This document shows positions 4,758 to 64,000 of a stretch of 64,000 bases of DNA, piece after piece (within the stretch, counting starts at the first letter, position 1; each line of letters starts with the position of its first letter). This stretch comes from Dehalococcoidia bacterium. Its GTDB lineage: Bacteria; Chloroflexota; Dehalococcoidia; Lucifugimonadales; UBA3495. The position numbers were made by a program, and so were the translations under genes. Under the pieces are notes generated by a model. The model was not told the origin of the DNA and did no database searches. It was given only the letters and a program-made list of their open reading frames with translations. The stretch spans positions 229,854 through 293,853 of the forward strand of contig CBDBPP010000002.1 of the NCBI GenBank assembly GCA_965208825.1, read 5' to 3'.

Positions 4758-5777
4758 TTGGTGGAAAAGGTAGACCTCCACAGATATGAAATCTCCGGCC
4801 GTCTCGGCTCCGGGGCGGACTACGATGTCCGCGCTGCCATAGACCGGGACACGGGAGCCGAGGTCGCCTTGAAACGCCCAGTGCCCCAGGCGGTGAGCCG
4901 GAGGCAGCACGCTGCCATAGAGGGCCGTACCGAAAGACTTCTCGTGGCATACGACAAGTGCGGCGACGCCGGCGGGTTGCTGGCGCCGTTGCTCGGGTAC
5001 ACCGATTGCGCGGTCCACGACGACTTTTTCGGAGACGACCTCGGCGAACCCTATACCGTTTTCGTCCAGGTTCGCGCACCGGGAATTCCCCTGCTGGGAG
5101 ACATGATGTCCCGTTTCACAGGCGTTCCCATCGGTGCGGGGCAGAACCTCTTTGCCACTTTTCCCCTGGTGCCGGCCCGGGACGCGCCTCCCCTCCCCCT
5201 GCACAACCAGCTGCTGGACCTGGAGGAACAATTCCTGAATGCCGGCTACATCCTCATGGACCTTAGGCCGCAGAACGTGTTCTATCGGCCGGCGTCATGC
5301 AGGCTACAGGTCATCGACACCGGGGCATTGGCCGGGGTTGACGACCCTGCACCCAGGGGCCGTCCTCCCCTTGACGTTAATGATGCCTGCCTGGAACTGC
5401 TCAAGTTCTACACCACCGCGGAGCGCCCTCCCCTGGAGGCCGCCGGTTACCGCGATGCCAGGGGAGTCCGGCCCATCGTCAATATTCAGCAGGAGCTGGA
5501 CGAGATACGCCGCAGACTCCTGGATGCCGGGGACGGTGCACAGGCCGCCGGGGAGACCATTCTCGAAAAGATAGGCACTCGCGCTTACGTGGACTACGCT
5601 CAGTTTCGCTCCGATCTTTGCTGCTTTCTCCAGGCCGTTTCCGAGCGAAACCGGACTTTGCCGGAGTGGGACGGCGCACAGGCTGCCTGGCGGGAGGCGC
5701 TGGACTGGCTGCGGGAGGATTACTGGACCCGCTTCCTGTTCGACGCCGAGTCGGAACTGGCTGCCTTTGATCCCTGA
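4758..5777 (+). CDS. atypical protein-kinase-like protein
   Basis: Degenerate kinase landmarks appear in the right order: GRLGSGADYDV (Gly loop), VALKRP (VAIK-like Lys), LMDLRPQN (catalytic-loop-like) and VIDTG (DFG-like). GGGAGG lies 6 nt before the TTG at 4758, and GTG 4761 is also possible. Confidence 0.6.
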   Translation: MVEKVDLHRYEISGRLGSGADYDVRAAIDRDTGAEVALKRPVPQAVSRRQHAAIEGRTERLLVAYDKCGDAGGLLAPLLGYTDCAVHDDFFGDDLGEPYTVFVQVRAPGIPLLGDMMSRFTGVPIGAGQNLFATFPLVPARDAPPLPLHNQLLDLEEQFLNAGYILMDLRPQNVFYRPASCRLQVIDTGALAGVDDPAPRGRPPLDVNDACLELLKFYTTAERPPLEAAGYRDARGVRPIVNIQQELDEIRRRLLDAGDGAQAAGETILEKIGTRAYVDYAQFRSDLCCFLQAVSERNRTLPEWDGAQAAWREALDWLREDYWTRFLFDAESELAAFDP

Positions 5778-5877
5778 GGGTGAAAGAGGCCCGGGCCGTA
5801 GATTCTCGGTCAGTCCCGTACCTCCGGCTCGTGTATACCAGGGTAGCAATCAAATAGGAAATATAGAGGAAATTTCC

Positions 5878-6555
5878 ATGGTTGCCAGCACATTTTCAAC
5901 GTTGATAGACAATTCCGCACACGGCGAGGACAGTCTGCTGACCCGCGACCTTGGCAACGGGGACTTCCTCGACGTCGTAATGGACGGCGTCACCGGCCAC
6001 GGCGGGGCCGACGCCAGCAGGGAGTTGGCCGAGGCCCTGGCAGCCTGCCCCGCCGATACCATCGACGACATCGCCTCCACAATCAGCGAGGTGAACGATG
6101 AGTTCTTTGGAGTGGGAGGAGGGCGATTCCTGCTTACTACCGTCTCCGCCGCCCTCTTCCGCGGCGGTCGCCTGTATGTTACTGCAGCCGGGGACAGCCC
6201 CATCGTCATGATAACGCCCGATTCCCATGAGCGTCTCTGCGGAAGGACCGGAGGATTCCTGCACGTGGGCGTCGCAAAGGCCATAGGGGCCGCCGAATCC
6301 CTTGCCCAGATGACCCAGCGGGACCTGACGGTTCAGTCGGGCTCCCGGCTGGTCCTGGCCACCGACGGTATCACCGACAACATGGATATCGGCGAGCTGG
6401 CAGACATCGTCCGCCACTCCGTCACACCCGATGAGGCCACCGCCCGCATCGAGGAAATCATTGCCGGCCGGTTGGTGGAGGGCAGGGTGCCTGAAAAGCT
6501 GGGAGTCCGCTTCCGGTACGACGATCGCACCCTGATTATCCGGTTCTTTGACTAG
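5878..6555 (+). CDS. PP2C-family serine/threonine phosphatase
   Basis: Metal-binding motifs HGEDS, VVMDGVTGHGG and LVLATDGITDN. ATG 5878 follows GAGGAA. The track ORF start at 5767 overlaps the upstream gene. Confidence 0.75.
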   Translation: MVASTFSTLIDNSAHGEDSLLTRDLGNGDFLDVVMDGVTGHGGADASRELAEALAACPADTIDDIASTISEVNDEFFGVGGGRFLLTTVSAALFRGGRLYVTAAGDSPIVMITPDSHERLCGRTGGFLHVGVAKAIGAAESLAQMTQRDLTVQSGSRLVLATDGITDNMDIGELADIVRHSVTPDEATARIEEIIAGRLVEGRVPEKLGVRFRYDDRTLIIRFFD

Positions 6556-57833: not shown

Positions 57834-57896
57834 CCCTCAACCAGGCAACCAACCCACAATCGACAGACAGGGCAACTCGAACTGGAGGAGCAAGCC

Positions 57897-59186
57897 ATGA
57901 CTGCCAGCAGCAAGACCCTGGTAATCCGCAACGGAACACTGATCGACGGCACTGGCCAACCTGCCTCGGCCAACGAGGCCGTAGTTATCGAAGGCAATCG
58001 CGTCTCGAGCGTGGGCGCCCTTCCGCCAGGTCTCAACCTCGAGGACACGGACAACTTTGACGTCATCGACGCCGAGGGAAAGTGGATCATGCCCGGTCTC
58101 ATCGACGGCCACTGCCACCTCTCCTTCGGCTTCCCCGCCATCTCCTCCTTCAAATACCCCAGCGCCAAGGGCACCACCAGCCCCGCCTTCAGTGCCATCC
58201 GCGCCGCTCGCAACGCCCAGACCGTGCTCCGCTCCGGAGTCACCAGCATCTCCATTCCCGGCGGCACCTGGTTCATCGAGGTCGGCCTCCGCGACGCCAT
58301 CAACGCCGGCATGGTCGAGGGTCCCCGCATCGCCACCGCCGGACGCTTCATCGTCACCTACGGCAGCATCGGGGACTATGAGCCGTCATGGGTTGGCACG
58401 CCCGAGCATGTCCTGGGCGTCCTGACCAACGACGTCAATGACATGATCACCGAGGTCCGCCGCCAGACCAAGCATGGCGTTGACTTCATTAAACTCGCCG
58501 ACAGCACCTGGGGCGACGACCAGACCATGTCGAAAGAGGAAATCGCCGCCGTGGTGGATGAGGCCCATCGCCGCAACGCCCGCGTTACCATTCACTCCCG
58601 AGGCGCGGGCTCCACCAAGGCCGCAGCCGAGGCCGGCGTCGACTGGATCATGCACGCCGACCTGGCCACCGAGGCCGAGCTCTATTCCGTCGCCGAACAT
58701 GGCGTCCGCGTCATGCCCACCATGACCTTCCTGTTCGAAGCCCTCTCCATCGGCAAGGAAAAGGGACGGGGCGACGACGAGCTCGACCTCATCCGTCGCA
58801 ACACCGAGAGCGCCTGCCGCGTCCTCGAGACCGCTCGCAACCTCGGCGTCAAGGTCCTTTGTGGCACTGACAGCGGCAACTCCCCGGTCATGCCCTACGG
58901 CACCCTCCACGCCAACGAGGCCGAGGTCCTGGTAAAGTACGGCGGCTACACTCCCATGGAGGCCATCGTCGCCAACACCCGCGAGAACGCCTACGCCGTC
59001 GGGCTCGAGGGCCAGCTGGGTACCCTCGAGCCCGGTAAGCTCGCCGACCTGCTCATCCTCGACGCCGACCCGCTGGCCGACATCCGCGTCCTCCAGCGCG
59101 GCGAACACCTGGACACCGTCATCAAGGACGGCCACCGCGTCAACCTCCAGCCCGACGACCCCGAACCCCAGCTAGACCTCTGCTAG
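57897..59186 (+). CDS. amidohydrolase-family protein (metal-dependent, imidazolonepropionase/prolidase-like)
   Basis: LVIRNGTLIDGTG and MPGLIDGHCHL. GGAGG lies upstream of ATG 57897. The 149-codon upstream extension in the track is Pro/Arg-rich and repeat-derived. Confidence 0.85.
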   Translation: MTASSKTLVIRNGTLIDGTGQPASANEAVVIEGNRVSSVGALPPGLNLEDTDNFDVIDAEGKWIMPGLIDGHCHLSFGFPAISSFKYPSAKGTTSPAFSAIRAARNAQTVLRSGVTSISIPGGTWFIEVGLRDAINAGMVEGPRIATAGRFIVTYGSIGDYEPSWVGTPEHVLGVLTNDVNDMITEVRRQTKHGVDFIKLADSTWGDDQTMSKEEIAAVVDEAHRRNARVTIHSRGAGSTKAAAEAGVDWIMHADLATEAELYSVAEHGVRVMPTMTFLFEALSIGKEKGRGDDELDLIRRNTESACRVLETARNLGVKVLCGTDSGNSPVMPYGTLHANEAEVLVKYGGYTPMEAIVANTRENAYAVGLEGQLGTLEPGKLADLLILDADPLADIRVLQRGEHLDTVIKDGHRVNLQPDDPEPQLDLC

Positions 59187-59215
59187 GCGGAGGATTACGG
59201 CGGAGATAGGCATCA

Positions 59216-59821
59216 ATGGATTGGGCCACCAGTGAAGTCGTAACGGTCCTCGCGTTCCTTCTTCCAGGGCTTGTCGCTGCCGCAATCTTCTATTCCCTGA
59301 CGGCATACTCTAGGCCCAATGAATTCGGCTACGTCGTTCAGGCTCTGGCTTTTACCGTTGCCGCCCAGGCGATTAGCTGGATCATCCTGACGCTGGGGGA
59401 TTTGGCCTGGGATGTAGAATCGTGGCCTTCAGGAGTCGAAACTGTCTTCTCCGTTTTCAGCGCCATACTATTGGCCGTTTTCATGGCGTGCCTCGTCAAC
59501 CACGACATCGCTCATAGTTTCTTGCGGAAAATCGGAGTTACGAAGGAAACGTCGTATTCCTCTGAATGGTATTCGGCGTTTCATCGCTTCGACGATTGTT
59601 TTGTTGTGCTTCACCTGAAGGGAGGTCGCCGCCTTTACGGATGGCCTCAAGAGTGGCCGAGCCAGCCAGGGAAGGGGCACTTCATTATCGCTGAAGGCGA
59701 ATGGCTGGTTGAAAGCGAAAGACATCCTCTTAGTGGAGTTTCGATTGTCCTGATACCCGGGCGGGAGGTTGAAATGGTAGAATTTATGGAAACAACGCTT
59801 AGTGAAGGTTCAAAGGAGTAG
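59216..59821 (+). CDS. hypothetical membrane protein (3 TM helices plus a soluble C-terminal domain)
   Basis: TM segments VVTVLAFLLPGLVAAAIFYSL, YVVQALAFTVAAQAISWIILTL and VFSVFSAILLAVFMACLV. The C-terminal part is EWYSAFHRFDDCFVVLHLKGGRRLYGWPQEW... Local GC is visibly lower than in the flanks. Confidence 0.6.
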   Translation: MDWATSEVVTVLAFLLPGLVAAAIFYSLTAYSRPNEFGYVVQALAFTVAAQAISWIILTLGDLAWDVESWPSGVETVFSVFSAILLAVFMACLVNHDIAHSFLRKIGVTKETSYSSEWYSAFHRFDDCFVVLHLKGGRRLYGWPQEWPSQPGKGHFIIAEGEWLVESERHPLSGVSIVLIPGREVEMVEFMETTLSEGSKE

Positions 59822-59824
59822 TTT

Positions 59825-59959
59825 ATGGTAAGGGTGCCGAATCCCCCACCGAGCCAACGGTCTCAAGGAAACAATGGCAAGGGCCGCTCCGCCAAGCCCA
59901 CCAACCGCCAGAAGCCTCCTCCTCCACCGCCGCCTCCTCCAAAGAACAAAGACGCCTGA
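59825..59959 (+). CDS. micro-ORF, 44 aa, cationic with 9 consecutive prolines
   Basis: MVRVPNPPPSQRSQGNNGKGRSAKPTNRQKPPPPPPPPPKNKDA. AAGGAG lies 6 nt upstream of the ATG. Not in the track because it is below 60 aa. Confidence 0.4.
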   Translation: MVRVPNPPPSQRSQGNNGKGRSAKPTNRQKPPPPPPPPPKNKDA

Positions 59960-60009
59960 GACAAGAATTTGCCAGCGCCCACTAACCCGGCACTATATAG
60001 GTCGAGTAA

Positions 60010-60138
60010 ATGGCTAGATTGCCGAACTTGGCGCCAAGCAGGCGAGGGATCGGGCTGAAAGGAGACAACCGGCCTCTGAACGTCAAGAAGCCGCCCCCTC
60101 CGCCACCCCCCTCCTCCTTCAAAGAAAAGGGAGACTAA
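60010..60138 (+). CDS. micro-ORF, 42 aa, paralogue with 7 consecutive prolines
   Basis: MARLPNLAPSRRGIGLKGDNRPLNVKKPPPPPPPSSFKEKGD. Same M-x-R-[VL]-P-N...P-S-x-R...K-Pn...K-x-K layout as 59825-59959. SD is weak. Confidence 0.35.
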   Translation: MARLPNLAPSRRGIGLKGDNRPLNVKKPPPPPPPSSFKEKGD

Positions 60139-60255
60139 AGAGCGAAACTAAGGATACTCAATCAGCCTGTCGAACTGCTTTTTCGATGGGCTGTACACTA
60201 TATCGGACGAACGATTCCAGGCCCCCATCGCATCGCCATAGCCACGGAGCATCCC

Positions 60256-61517: not shown

Positions 61518-62747
61518 TCACCCCGCCGCGAAGGCTCCCTCGCGGTGCGCCCGCACCCGTTCCGCCAGCGCCCTCACCTGCCCCAGCGTCTCCAGGGGCG
61601 TTCCGGCCAGGTCCAGCGACACCACCTCGATCGCCTTCCCGGAATGCCGGATACGGTGTACGGCAGACCCCGCCTGCTCTCCAGCGTACACCAGCAGCCC
61701 GGAGGGCAGGTTCGCCGCGGTACAGTAGGCCAGCATCCGGTATATGTCCGACTGCTGACCATCGCCATCGGCCTTCGCTGGAGCGTACCGCGTATCACCG
61801 ACGAACAGGCAGCGGCGCCCCCTCCACCACGAGAGTCCTGGCCTTACCCGCACCTGTTCCTCCTCCGCCAGGTGCAGCGCCCGTCCCAGGTTGTGTCCCG
61901 CCGGCCATTCCGATTCCGGCAAACTCAGCTCCTGGCGCAGGGCCGTCCGCACGAAGGTCTCAAATACCCGGTTCATGTCCACCAGCAGCGACGCCCCCAC
62001 CGCCTCGCCGTGCAGGAACTCCAGTAACGTGCTTCCGATGACCAGCCGGGCCATCTCCACTGCCGGCTTGTAGTGGCGATTCAGTCGGGTGTAATGCACC
62101 TCCGGCACCATTCCCCTGCGATAATTCCCCAGCGAGACCGGAGCAAACGCCGGTCGCAGTGCCCCCAGCTGTCGCAGCGTCTCCACCGACCGCACCGGCA
62201 TCCGTCCCAGCAGGTGGATCGCGGTCTTCAGCAGCCGGTTTTCCTCGATATCCACGGTGAAATCGTCGTGGCTTACCTCCACCGGAATCGTCCAGCCGAA
62301 CCTCCTGTTCATCTGGTCCGGTAAACGAATACGCCCCCGGACCATGGCCACCGACTCCTCCTCCGTACGGTATCCCTGCAGCAGGCCGCGCTGGATTGCA
62401 TCCTGAGTGAGCCTGACAAAGGCCGGCACAATCGCCTCGAGAATGTCGTCATCCTCAGCGAGATCGAAGGGGGCATCTCCCCAGTCCCCCGGGCCCAGGG
62501 AAAACCCGACCAGGAACATCACCCGGTCCATGGGAATCCTGGGCCGGATTACCACGTTCAGTTCGCCGCACCGGAACACGCCGACCTGCGACGAGGGACA
62601 CAGCTCCCACGCCAGGTCCCCGGGCCTTCCCGGCGCACTGACTGGCCGTACGCTTACGTGCGCTTCGCCAAGGATCTCCAGTTGTTCCCCCGTAAGCGGG
62701 GCGTCAACCCTGTAGGGCTCTCCCTCACGCAACTGGAGAGTTTGCAT
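61518..62747 (-). CDS. mcrC: McrC-like restriction endonuclease subunit
   Basis: C-terminal nuclease motif FVGDTRY...QSDIYRMLAYC. ATG 62747 (MQTLQLREGE) overlaps the mcrB stop by 23 nt. The longer track ORF extends out of frame into mcrB. Confidence 0.8.
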   Translation of the reverse strand: MQTLQLREGEPYRVDAPLTGEQLEILGEAHVSVRPVSAPGRPGDLAWELCPSSQVGVFRCGELNVVIRPRIPMDRVMFLVGFSLGPGDWGDAPFDLAEDDDILEAIVPAFVRLTQDAIQRGLLQGYRTEEESVAMVRGRIRLPDQMNRRFGWTIPVEVSHDDFTVDIEENRLLKTAIHLLGRMPVRSVETLRQLGALRPAFAPVSLGNYRRGMVPEVHYTRLNRHYKPAVEMARLVIGSTLLEFLHGEAVGASLLVDMNRVFETFVRTALRQELSLPESEWPAGHNLGRALHLAEEEQVRVRPGLSWWRGRRCLFVGDTRYAPAKADGDGQQSDIYRMLAYCTAANLPSGLLVYAGEQAGSAVHRIRHSGKAIEVVSLDLAGTPLETLGQVRALAERVRAHREGAFAAG

Positions 62748-64000
62748 CTGCCGCCGCGGCATCCTCGTCCTGCCCTGCCGCTGAGGCGGTCTCCTCGGAC
62801 TCTGGACCCCCTTCGGCCTCCTCGTCCTCCGCCGGTTCCTCCCGTGACTCCCCGGCGGCAGGTTTCCCGACTTCCCTCGACAGTTCCGACAGCAACCTGT
62901 CGAAGTCGAACTCCGCCAGCCGGTCTTCGTTGCCGAAGAACTGCTCCTCGATGTAGGGGAGCACCGCCCGCCTCCAGATCCTTCGCACCTGGGCCTCGTC
63001 CAGTCCCTCGGCATCCGGCATGAAGAAGCTCGGGCCGATGCTCGTATGGCGGTCTCCCAGCCTCTCGTTGGCGAGGTCCACCAGGTCGGCCACCCAGGAC
63101 GCCTCCGGCCGGTTCCGGTCCAGCCACCGCCGCAGCAGTCCCCGGATCGGAGGCTGGTCTCCGAAGAAAGGTGCGAAGTAGAATCGCCGCCGCAGCGCGG
63201 CGTCCATAAGCGCGATGGAACGGTCCGCCGTGTTCATCGTGCAGATGAACCACAGGTTCTCCGGCAGCCGGAACCTCTGGCCCGCACCGCTGTACTGCAG
63301 CTGGATATCGTCGTCGCGGTACTCCAGCAGGTAGTACAGTTCCCCGAATACCTTGGCCACGTTGCCCCGGTTCAGCTCGTCGATCACCAGTATGTACGTC
63401 GATTGCGGGTTGGCGGCAGCTTGCGCCGCCATCCGCAGCAGCGGCCCGGCCACCAGTTCGAATCCTGGCTGTCCCTCCCGTATCCTGGGCCGGAACCCCT
63501 CGACGAAGTCCTCGTACGAGTAAGACGGGTGAAACTGCACGATGGCGTAGTCGCCCCCCTCCTCTCGGCAATGCTGGGCGATCCTGCGCGCTACGTACGT
63601 CTTCCCGGTGCCCGAGGGCCCGTAGAAAATCACCTGTCGCTTATCTCGCAGGTCCGCCACCACCTCGGCGAACTCCCCCTCCTCCCACAGCAGCTCCTCC
63701 GCCAGGGCCGCCAGTTTCTCCTGCGACCATGGGTCTCGTGGCGTAGACGGTGCGGACTCGGGCTGGGACTCCGGCACCTGCTCCGGTTCCCGCTCCGTCG
63801 GAAGCGGTGGCGGTGGCACCGTGTCCCCGTGCAGGTACGCGTCGTACCGCTGGCGAAGCCCCTCCGGCCATTCGCTGGCTGGCGGTCGTTCCGTCCCGTA
63901 GAGCATCACGCACCACAGCAGCGACTGGGCGTCCATCCGGTCCCGGATGTGCAGGCTGCGCGTTCCCGAGCGCCGGATGAACTCATCAAGGAAATTCAGC
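62725..64000 (-). CDS. mcrB: McrB-like GTPase/AAA+ restriction subunit (5' end outside the window)
   Basis: Motifs FYGPSGTGKTY, LVIDELNRGNVAKVFGELYYLLEYRD and FICTMNTADRSIALMDAALRRRF. The frame stays open upstream of ATG 63936 to the window edge. Confidence 0.85.
   Translation of the reverse strand, partial: LNFLDEFIRRSGTRSLHIRDRMDAQSLLWCVMLYGTERPPASEWPEGLRQRYDAYLHGDTVPPPPLPTEREPEQVPESQPESAPSTPRDPWSQEKLAALAEELLWEEGEFAEVVADLRDKRQVIFYGPSGTGKTYVARRIAQHCREEGGDYAIVQFHPSYSYEDFVEGFRPRIREGQPGFELVAGPLLRMAAQAAANPQSTYILVIDELNRGNVAKVFGELYYLLEYRDDDIQLQYSGAGQRFRLPENLWFICTMNTADRSIALMDAALRRRFYFAPFFGDQPPIRGLLRRWLDRNRPEASWVADLVDLANERLGDRHTSIGPSFFMPDAEGLDEAQVRRIWRRAVLPYIEEQFFGNEDRLAEFDFDRLLSELSREVGKPAAGESREEPAEDEEAEGGPESEETASAAGQDEDAAAADANSPVA

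Follow-up and report, generated by a model that had tools for sequence, protein, structure and literature searches.

The window analysed here is a stretch of 64,000 nucleotides from a Dehalococcoidia bacterium of the phylum Chloroflexota (contig CBDBPP010000002.1). Our subject is a small islet in this window, which encodes a membrane protein of the DUF6338 family and two proline-rich microproteins and lies between the genes of an amidohydrolase and an enolase-family protein. The whole inserted accessory islet extends from the stop codon of the amidohydrolase gene to the start codon of the enolase-family gene (59187–60255), as defined by empty and filled sites in congeneric genomes and by the GC profile. 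The DUF6338 gene (59216–59821, + strand) encodes 201 amino acids. Its last two sense codons form the Shine-Dalgarno sequence AAGGAG (59813–59818, + strand) for the first small open reading frame (micro-ORF1, or ORF1), and they are followed by TAG, TTT and the ATG at 59825. Micro-ORF1 (59825–59959, + strand) encodes a cationic microprotein of 44 residues with a run of nine prolines (P9, 59915–59941). Micro-ORF2 (ORF2; 60010–60138, + strand), with its start codon 185 bp from that of micro-ORF1, encodes a paralogous microprotein of 42 residues with a run of seven prolines (P7, 60091–60111). The module is closed by a 12-bp stem-loop (60163–60193, + strand; minimum free energy −17.3 kcal/mol, z = −2.5). 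Homologous stem-loops are present after the last peptide gene in two congeners (the right-hand junctions of loci L092 and L099), one of them with a T-run; the hairpin in the window is without a T-run and was scored as no canonical terminator. The positions of the three ORFs and of AAGGAG agree with the original prediction, which a model had made from the sequence of this region. The same prediction had placed a TTGCCA-N17/19-TATATA promoter in front of ORF2, and this element is not borne out, as a scan with the sigma-70 consensus found 0 sites.

The islet is compositionally foreign. The GC content is 0.51–0.58 over positions 59200–60250, compared to 0.65–0.68 in both flanks. The GC content at third codon positions (GC3) drops from 0.86 in the amidohydrolase gene to 0.57 in the DUF6338 gene, 0.62 in ORF1 and 0.70 in ORF2, and is 0.90 in the enolase-family gene. 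These measurements, which had been proposed as a check, confirm the earlier description of a lower-GC islet between two GC-rich enzyme genes. The codon choice of the P9 run is unusual as well, as had also been noticed. It uses CCT five times, CCA twice, CCG twice and CCC not at all, while CCC accounts for 14/20 and 14/21 of the prolines in the two flanking genes. Runs of at least seven CCN codons, counted regardless of reading frame, are found at about eight places in the 4.04-Mb genome, and two of these fall inside this 320-bp stretch. Other long CCN runs of the same genome (G000), with up to about 25 codons, are located at C4:860783-860892, C5:884274-884317 and C3:390588-390616.

The membrane protein matches the Pfam family DUF6338 (PF19865) with a score of 49.7 bits (E = 4.4e-13; gathering cut-off 26.5 bits), and residues 6–193 are aligned to positions 6–202 of the 205 in the model. 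It has 463 homologues at E ≤ 1e-3, all of which carry PF19865, and no match in NCBIfam, PHROGs or PADLOC. A search with a hidden Markov model (HMM) through 1.84 billion cluster representatives, from clusters made at 50 % identity, finds 1347 DUF6338 clusters at E ≤ 1e-3 and 872 at E ≤ 1e-10.

An AlphaFold2 model of the DUF6338 protein, based on 29 homologues, has a mean pLDDT of 74.5. Three transmembrane (TM) helices are predicted at residues 2–28, 36–65 and 74–95. After TM3 the model has a short helix, and then a helix and five or six strands. The latter form a predicted Sm/SH3-like small β-barrel at the C-terminus (approximately residues 115–192, pLDDT 72–86). A search through the Protein Data Bank (PDB) with the program Foldseek matches the barrel to Sm/LSm proteins, including SmG and archaeal SmAP, with E = 4e-5, target TM-scores of 0.76–0.86 and rms distances of 1.6–2.0 Å over about 72 residues. 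The Sm/LSm fold, an N-terminal helix with five strongly bent strands, is matched by the predicted domain in this superposition. Several aromatic residues of the barrel (W118, Y119, Y141, W143, W147-P148, F156 and W163) are invariant or nearly invariant, and the mean net charge of the C-terminal domain is −8.7. Basic residues are found in the loop between TM1 and TM2 and past TM3, and the loop between TM2 and TM3 is acidic. Because of this distribution of charges, the N-terminus is probably outside and the barrel in the cytoplasm.

Sm-type domains usually form rings, and the β-domain of the mechanosensitive channel MscS belongs to the Sm-like clan. Homology of DUF6338 to MscS was considered but finds no support. 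The DUF6338 protein has no match to the Pfam model of MscS (PF00924), hhalign gives a probability of only 1.7 % against the MscS-family protein of the same genome, and the only PDB sequence matches at E ≤ 10 in a profile search, to YnaI channels (E = 0.5), are in a non-equivalent helix.

The product of ORF1 contains MVRVPNPPPSQR, a basic linker and then K-P9-KNKDA (full peptide MVRVPNPPPSQRSQGNNGKGRSAKPTNRQKPPPPPPPPPKNKDA). The product of ORF2 contains MARLPNLAPSRRGIGLKGDNRPLNVKK-P7-SSFKEKGD (full peptide MARLPNLAPSRRGIGLKGDNRPLNVKKPPPPPPPSSFKEKGD). The tail of the latter is degenerate relative to its orthologues, and the ribosome-binding site of ORF2 is weak. A scan of one genome per species finds 243 stretches that encode a DUF6338 relative, and the best 80 of these were analysed as loci (L numbers below). 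They represent about ten phyla in all. Chloroflexota (36 loci) and Pseudomonadota (16 loci) contribute most, and Binatota, Acidobacteriota, Rhodothermota, Nitrospirota, Nitrospinota, Verrucomicrobiota, Planctomycetota and Thermodesulfobacteriota are also present; one of the loci is from the cultured Marinimicrobium agarilyticum DSM 16975. A small ORF of this type is located on the same strand directly 3′ of the DUF6338 stop codon in 80 of the 80 loci, in one of which it is cut by the contig end. By this comparison of gene order, the DUF6338 gene and the peptide gene are a strictly linked pair in the loci examined. The original prediction had named lack of conservation in related genomes as a reason to abandon the micro-ORFs; the peptide gene is instead present in every homologous locus examined, and the suggested functional tie to the membrane protein is strengthened as well.

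The peptides share the consensus M-A-K-E-P-(N/T)-P-P-P-S-x-R, followed by a variable basic linker and K-P9-K-K. In 47 of 88 peptides the proline tract occupies nine positions, in some of them as PPPPPxPPP. It is preceded by a lysine in 70/88 and followed by KK or KR in 55/88, and the peptide ends 2–4 residues past the tract in 70/88. The median length is 42 residues, with a median net charge of +7. The two peptides in the window represent two types. That of ORF2 matches the first peptide of L004, L023 and L030, and also a peptide of L002, and that of ORF1 matches the peptides of L008 and L005 and the second peptide of L002/L126. In this close relative (L002/L126) the two types are in the reversed order compared to the window. 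With orthologues of both types in other loci, the earlier view of the two micro-ORFs as paralogues of one unit holds. Several loci (L058, L075, L078, L057, L063 and L007) have two to five tandem peptide copies. At L041:3540-3900 there are two tandem copies with degenerate tails, K-R-P-P-L-P-V-I-K-R and K-K-P-P-I-P-A-I-K-R, in place of the homopolymeric prolines.

The start context is the same in most of the 80 loci, with GAGGAG or AAGGAG as the last two codons of the DUF6338 gene, then the stop codon, three nucleotides and ATG. In about half of the loci the peptide is in the frame of DUF6338, one codon past the stop, and the rest overlap in other frames. Because this frame relation varies among the loci, translational coupling is favoured, and an obligatory fusion by read-through of the stop codon is rejected.

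Comparisons of codons point to selection on the peptide at the protein level. Between ORF2 and its orthologue in L023, 12 codons are identical, 21 differ synonymously and 9 differ non-synonymously. Many of the codon differences between ORF1 and its relatives are also synonymous. CCC is the rarest codon in the tracts (77/645) despite the GC-rich genomes, and this scarcity is consistent with avoidance of slippery poly-C runs. The public gene calls of the relatives L126–L129 have a 644-nt gap (6624–7268 in L126) exactly at the two micro-ORFs, and the peptide family is missing from the protein databases because no gene is called there. We regard it as settled that the micro-ORFs are real, conserved, protein-coding genes and that they are partners of DUF6338.

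Relatives of these peptides have been observed by mass spectrometry in Pseudomonas stutzeri ATCC 14405 (PMC10433244, Anal Chem 2023). Three new proline-rich small proteins, SEP1, SEP5 and SEP2 (36, 47 and 41 residues), were reported there, with the C-termini ...APPPPKK, ...APPPPPKRDSK and ...APPPPPKKGG, and their genes are in a predicted operon behind the DUF6338 gene Pstu14405_RS12030 (PMC10433244). Digest-free mass spectrometry gave 44–114 peptide-spectrum matches for each of them, with up to 100 % sequence coverage, and they were abundant in normally growing, unstressed cells (PMC10433244). Membrane fractions were outside that analysis, and the DUF6338 protein itself was not detected in the samples (PMC10433244). 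The authors found the SEPs only in P. stutzeri, with no conservation beyond it, and proposed no function, structure or partner (PMC10433244). SEP5 aligns to the peptide of Marinimicrobium (L077) with a score of 108, compared to 44 ± 7 for shuffled sequences, none of which (0/1000) reached 108. Because of this alignment, the P. stutzeri SEPs are members of one peptide family with those of the loci studied here. The window peptides are assigned to it by the N-terminal and K-Pn-KK motifs that they have in common with it, and not through a direct score against the SEPs. Translation is therefore demonstrated for the family in P. stutzeri, and the window peptides would be linked to it by family membership. 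The arrangement of the operon, in which the DUF6338 gene is immediately followed, in the same orientation, by at least one basic, proline-rich ORF of <60 residues, is found in the window with two such ORFs.

Gene fusions are a classic sign of proteins that act in one complex, and two natural fusions of DUF6338 and the peptide, P0158 and P0191, are found among the longer clusters of the HMM search. The first (loci L130–L132) ends with ...EEPNPSPPSQNR...RPPPPPPPPAKKIV; several samples yielded it in identical form, on 12 metagenome contigs in all. The second ends with ...NPPPPTGPKPPPPPPPPPPPSKE.... These fusions put the tail of the peptide and the barrel on one side of the membrane. There is also complementarity in charge between the basic peptides and the acidic, aromatic C-terminal domain of DUF6338 (median +7 versus mean −8.7). 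As a sequence motif, K-P9-K-K fits both orientations of SH3 ligands (+xxPxxP and PxxPx+). The read-through product of the window, modelled in frame with AlphaFold2 on an alignment with 27 equivalent products, has a pLDDT of 68 for residues 231–240, which hold most of the proline tract, compared to 34–47 for the linker and up to about 85 for the barrel. The rise over the tract is compatible with its docking on the barrel, but no more than that.

The pairing reaches into remote branches of the family as well. Remote clades of DUF6338 in Chloroflexota have other proline-rich ORFs downstream, for example ...ITERPPPPPPFGGTGG.... In one such clade (L116–L122, from a single Chloroflexota genus, g87), a different partner of 70–110 residues is located at approximately 2000–2350 of each locus. 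Its core, ...GGLxxKGGxNPxxSxITERPPPPPPFGGTGG..., is conserved, and some of the loci have two tandem copies. The sole match on a plasmid is in PALBO2 of Paludisphaera borealis PX4 (NZ_CP019084.1, L105), where an unannotated ORF of 49 residues (L105:5692-5841), ending with ...TPPPPPPKQS, overlaps the end of the annotated DUF6338 gene. An ATP-binding protein and an S8 peptidase are encoded upstream of this pair, and an integrase and ParDE downstream.

Within the genus the module is an accessory element. The DUF6338 gene is present in one copy in the window genome, and such a gene is found in 9 of 25 congeneric genomes, the window genome included. The site between the same amidohydrolase and enolase-family genes is filled in G000, G001, G008 and G015, and probably in G002, where the amidohydrolase is not seen in the available sequence. 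The site is empty in G006, G007, G013 and G014, with a gap of only about 40 nt between the two genes. In G010 the module is located after the enolase-family gene instead. By these comparisons, the unit comes and goes as a whole. The junctions compared among congeners show no clear target-site duplication and no clear signature of a recombination site. The GC content of the module is below that of its flanks in 71 of 75 loci (0.542 versus 0.619). The DUF6338 alleles of the genus are 50–73 % identical, compared to 87–92 % for the adjoining enolase-family gene, and they are in one clade of the maximum-likelihood tree (SH-aLRT 91). These features fit an old acquisition, with fast divergence and a presence/absence polymorphism. 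Repeated independent insertion at one site is not favoured, as a single old acquisition is at least as likely given the single clade. In two further loci from congeners (L001 and L003), an ORF of about 710 residues on the opposite strand (at approximately 4924–5922, − strand) replaces the enolase-family gene, which makes the region after the amidohydrolase gene variable in the genus.

Most neighbours of the module are housekeeping genes, with 135 Pfam families among 150 flanking ORFs. In the window, the upstream amidohydrolase (57888–59186) has its best match to the Xaa-Pro dipeptidase model NF051886, with 220 bits, below the cut-off of 500 bits. Its position beside polyproline genes looks coincidental, because several congeners lack the module at this site.

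Taken together, the window appears to have an intact copy of a self-contained, two-part accessory module, in which the microprotein would be a polyproline-helix ligand for the barrel of a membrane-anchored oligomer. This is our best explanation for the islet, and we consider it somewhat better than an even proposition. One part is the DUF6338 inner-membrane protein, with three predicted TM helices and a presumably cytoplasmic, acidic, aromatic-rich Sm/SH3-like barrel. The other consists of one or more translationally coupled, strongly basic microproteins of about 40 residues, in which a variable basic linker joins a P-x-P-P-P-S motif in the N-terminal part to a K-(Pro)9-K-K tail at the C-terminus. 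The microprotein would bind the barrel on the cytoplasmic face, possibly through both proline motifs, and thereby assemble, bridge or gate a ring-shaped membrane oligomer. For the specific proposal that the microprotein is a polyproline-II ligand of the cytoplasmic barrel, bridging or gating the oligomer, the chances seem to us about balanced, with the predicted barrel and the natural fusions as its basis.

A further layer of the mechanism is more tentative. A polyproline tract such as P9 is reportedly a strong EF-P-dependent stall. Synthesis of the microprotein would then depend strongly on EF-P, and the ratio of peptide to membrane protein could report translation capacity. That the module reads translation capacity in this manner, in the service of defence, addiction or stress, seems to us rather doubtful, though worth stating. 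The most elaborate version, a widespread and so far unrecognised type of two-component membrane system in which a membrane-anchored Sm-like ring reads the K-Pro9-KK microprotein and so ties elongation capacity to whether a membrane pore assembles or opens, is unlikely in our estimate. Such a device could serve, for instance, in abortive infection or as an addiction switch, and the proline helix of nine residues, about 28 Å in length, would be its ruler or plug of fixed length. The module may have a role in conflict or stress.

Several observations weigh against the two-part module with a barrel ligand, or against a role of it in conflict. ORF2, with its weak ribosome-binding site and degenerate tail, may be decaying. 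The DUF6338 tree is largely phylum-coherent (14 label changes, with a minimum of 9 and a mean of 32 after shuffling) and hence gives no indication of frequent transfer between phyla. There is no conserved third gene among the flanking ORFs of the loci. PADLOC-DB v2 has no match for DUF6338 or either peptide at E ≤ 1, and PHROGs has none for either component. The subfamily is absent from the phages searched and nearly absent from plasmids, with the one record of PALBO2. A minority of loci adjoin restriction or Abi genes (type IIG/ISP restriction, AbiLi and SoFic models), and an enrichment of defence genes is not claimed because related loci are not independent. A McrC/McrB pair, convergent with the enolase-family gene, is located 1.4 kb downstream in the window (61518–64000, − strand). 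As the relatives L126–L129 have it at the same position, it is a syntenic neighbour and does not belong to the module. Both a known defence system and phage or plasmid cargo are rejected on these grounds, the latter also by tblastn searches through 50,697 phage records with two different family members as queries, which gave no match. The same searches, together with the intact and conserved genes, speak against the suggestion in the original prediction that the micro-ORFs are remnants of a phage or mobile element, and it is settled that they are not phage debris.

Other explanations of the locus differ in how they treat the membrane protein. It could be a pore-forming effector that is held closed by the EF-P-dependent peptide in the manner of an antitoxin, so that crippling of translation or EF-P, for example by a phage, leads to a shortage of the peptide and opens the pore. 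Such a module for conflict, with surveillance of translation, is unlikely in our view, although several features speak for it: the module is a small, self-contained, low-GC unit that is gained and lost as a block, has a patchy distribution, evolves faster than its neighbours and carries a P9 tract with the stalling property described above. Some of the copies have suggestive neighbours, in the form of the restriction, AbiLi or SoFic genes, the ATPase and S8 peptidase pair, integrase and ParDE on the Paludisphaera plasmid, and a cluster of a DUF1156 methylase and an SNF2/PLD helicase at about 14 kb from the P. stutzeri module. On the other hand, the lack of a PADLOC match, the mostly housekeeping neighbours and the presence of one copy in the genome do not favour it, and the natural fusions would abolish a titratable inhibitor. 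The abundance of the peptides in unstressed P. stutzeri is neither for nor against it. The same pore could instead have no role in conflict, with the microprotein as a stoichiometric subunit or assembly factor of a small MscS-like channel for envelope or osmotic homeostasis. Three TM helices and an Sm-like barrel mirror the core of MscS in the predicted structure, YnaI channels are the only sequence matches in the PDB, the tree is largely phylum-coherent, and the peptides are abundant during normal growth of P. stutzeri. The sequence comparisons with MscS described above go against such a channel, and a housekeeping gene would not usually be so patchy within one genus or so foreign in its base composition. 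We consider this explanation quite unlikely.

The remaining alternatives concern mainly the peptides. The original prediction had suggested secreted or ribosome-targeting proline-rich peptides, with the membrane protein as exporter or immunity factor, and the peptides do have a general likeness to the proline-rich antimicrobial peptides of animals in being cationic and proline-rich; the tandem gene copies in L058, L075 and L078 are also as in bacteriocin precursors. This suggestion is weakened by the lack of a signal or leader sequence and by the natural fusions, which tether the peptide to the C-terminus of DUF6338. Moreover, there are no processing or ABC-transporter genes nearby, the prolines are homopolymeric rather than in PRP-type motifs, and the P. 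stutzeri relatives were found full-length in samples for which membrane fractions were not analysed. We consider an antimicrobial-type peptide very unlikely. That the micro-ORFs are chance frames or functionless, decaying remnants could be proposed from the tail and ribosome-binding site of ORF2, and from the fact that gene callers skip them. This is hardly tenable, and for ORF1 it is already contradicted, by the presence of the peptide gene in all 80 loci, the conserved start context, tract length and flanking lysines, the many synonymous codon differences and the detection of relatives by mass spectrometry. Lastly, the enolase-family gene could be regulated by the peptides, as leader or arrest peptides with EF-P or prolyl-tRNA as the signal; the original prediction had offered such leaders. 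The position upstream of this gene in the window and the stalling potential of polyproline are all that favour it. Four congeners have the enolase-family gene about 40 nt after the amidohydrolase gene without the module, and one has the module after the enolase-family gene; these empty sites and the alternative insertion site rule out the leader peptides. Outside the genus, the peptides always follow DUF6338 and the downstream genes are unrelated, so that the peptides co-vary with the upstream DUF6338 gene and not with any downstream gene. The closing hairpin also separates the module from the enolase-family gene. We give this explanation practically no weight.

The P. stutzeri operon is the closest known relative of the module. 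As in the window, genes for small basic proteins lie behind a DUF6338 gene of the same Pfam family and in the same orientation; in P. stutzeri these proteins have 36–47 residues and end with ...APPPP(P)K(K/R). SEP5 can be aligned to the peptides from gammaproteobacterial loci of our set. The operon is the sole experimental proof that peptides of this type are produced. The P. stutzeri peptides differ from those of the window in that there are three copies of them, with proline runs that are shorter and interrupted. The pairing of DUF6338 with proline-rich small proteins is thus on record for one species, without a function and as non-conserved. The linkage across phyla, the K-P9-KK subfamily, the Sm-like barrel and the natural fusions appear to be unpublished in the literature searched.

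The proposed recognition has a likeness to the pairs of SH3 domains and polyproline-II ligands. These pairs also consist of a small β-barrel with conserved aromatic and acidic residues and a proline helix with basic flanks (class I +xxPxxP, class II PxxPx+), and the Sm and SH3 folds are related. The predicted DUF6338 domain, however, matches Sm/LSm rather than SH3 in the fold search, the putative receptor is anchored in the membrane, and the candidate ligand is a dedicated, co-translated microprotein. MscS shares with the DUF6338 model three TM helices, a short amphipathic helix and a cytoplasmic Sm-like β-domain, and a ring-shaped oligomer is plausible for DUF6338. Unlike MscS, DUF6338 has no α-β vestibule domain and no detectable sequence homology to it, and we know of no small-protein partner of MscS. 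As in toxin-antitoxin and abortive-infection modules with membrane effectors, the unit has two genes and is small, translationally coupled, compositionally foreign and patchy. It differs from them in that no PADLOC model matches and the small partner is downstream and polyproline; to our knowledge, no described antitoxin is a polyproline peptide. Proline-rich antimicrobial peptides of animals, such as apidaecin, oncocin and Bac7, are likewise short, cationic, proline-rich and unstructured. They have PRP-type motifs and are secreted from precursors, whereas peptides of the window type have a homopolymeric P9, no leader, and are sometimes fused to the membrane protein.

Gene callers do not see microproteins of about 40 residues, and the result here is a missing gene family. 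The membrane proteins with which they are paired are a large family, as indicated by the 872 clusters at the stricter threshold. Nine consecutive prolines are among the hardest sequences for the ribosome, and their retention over about ten phyla implies a specific structural or sensing role. Cultured carriers of the module are available in P. stutzeri ATCC 14405, M. agarilyticum DSM 16975 and P. borealis PX4. If the barrel does bind the polyproline tract, this would be the first functional handle on DUF6338 and a bacterial SH3-like recognition pair built from an Sm-type fold. If the pair is also an EF-P-dependent switch, it would represent a new principle for the sensing of stress or phages.

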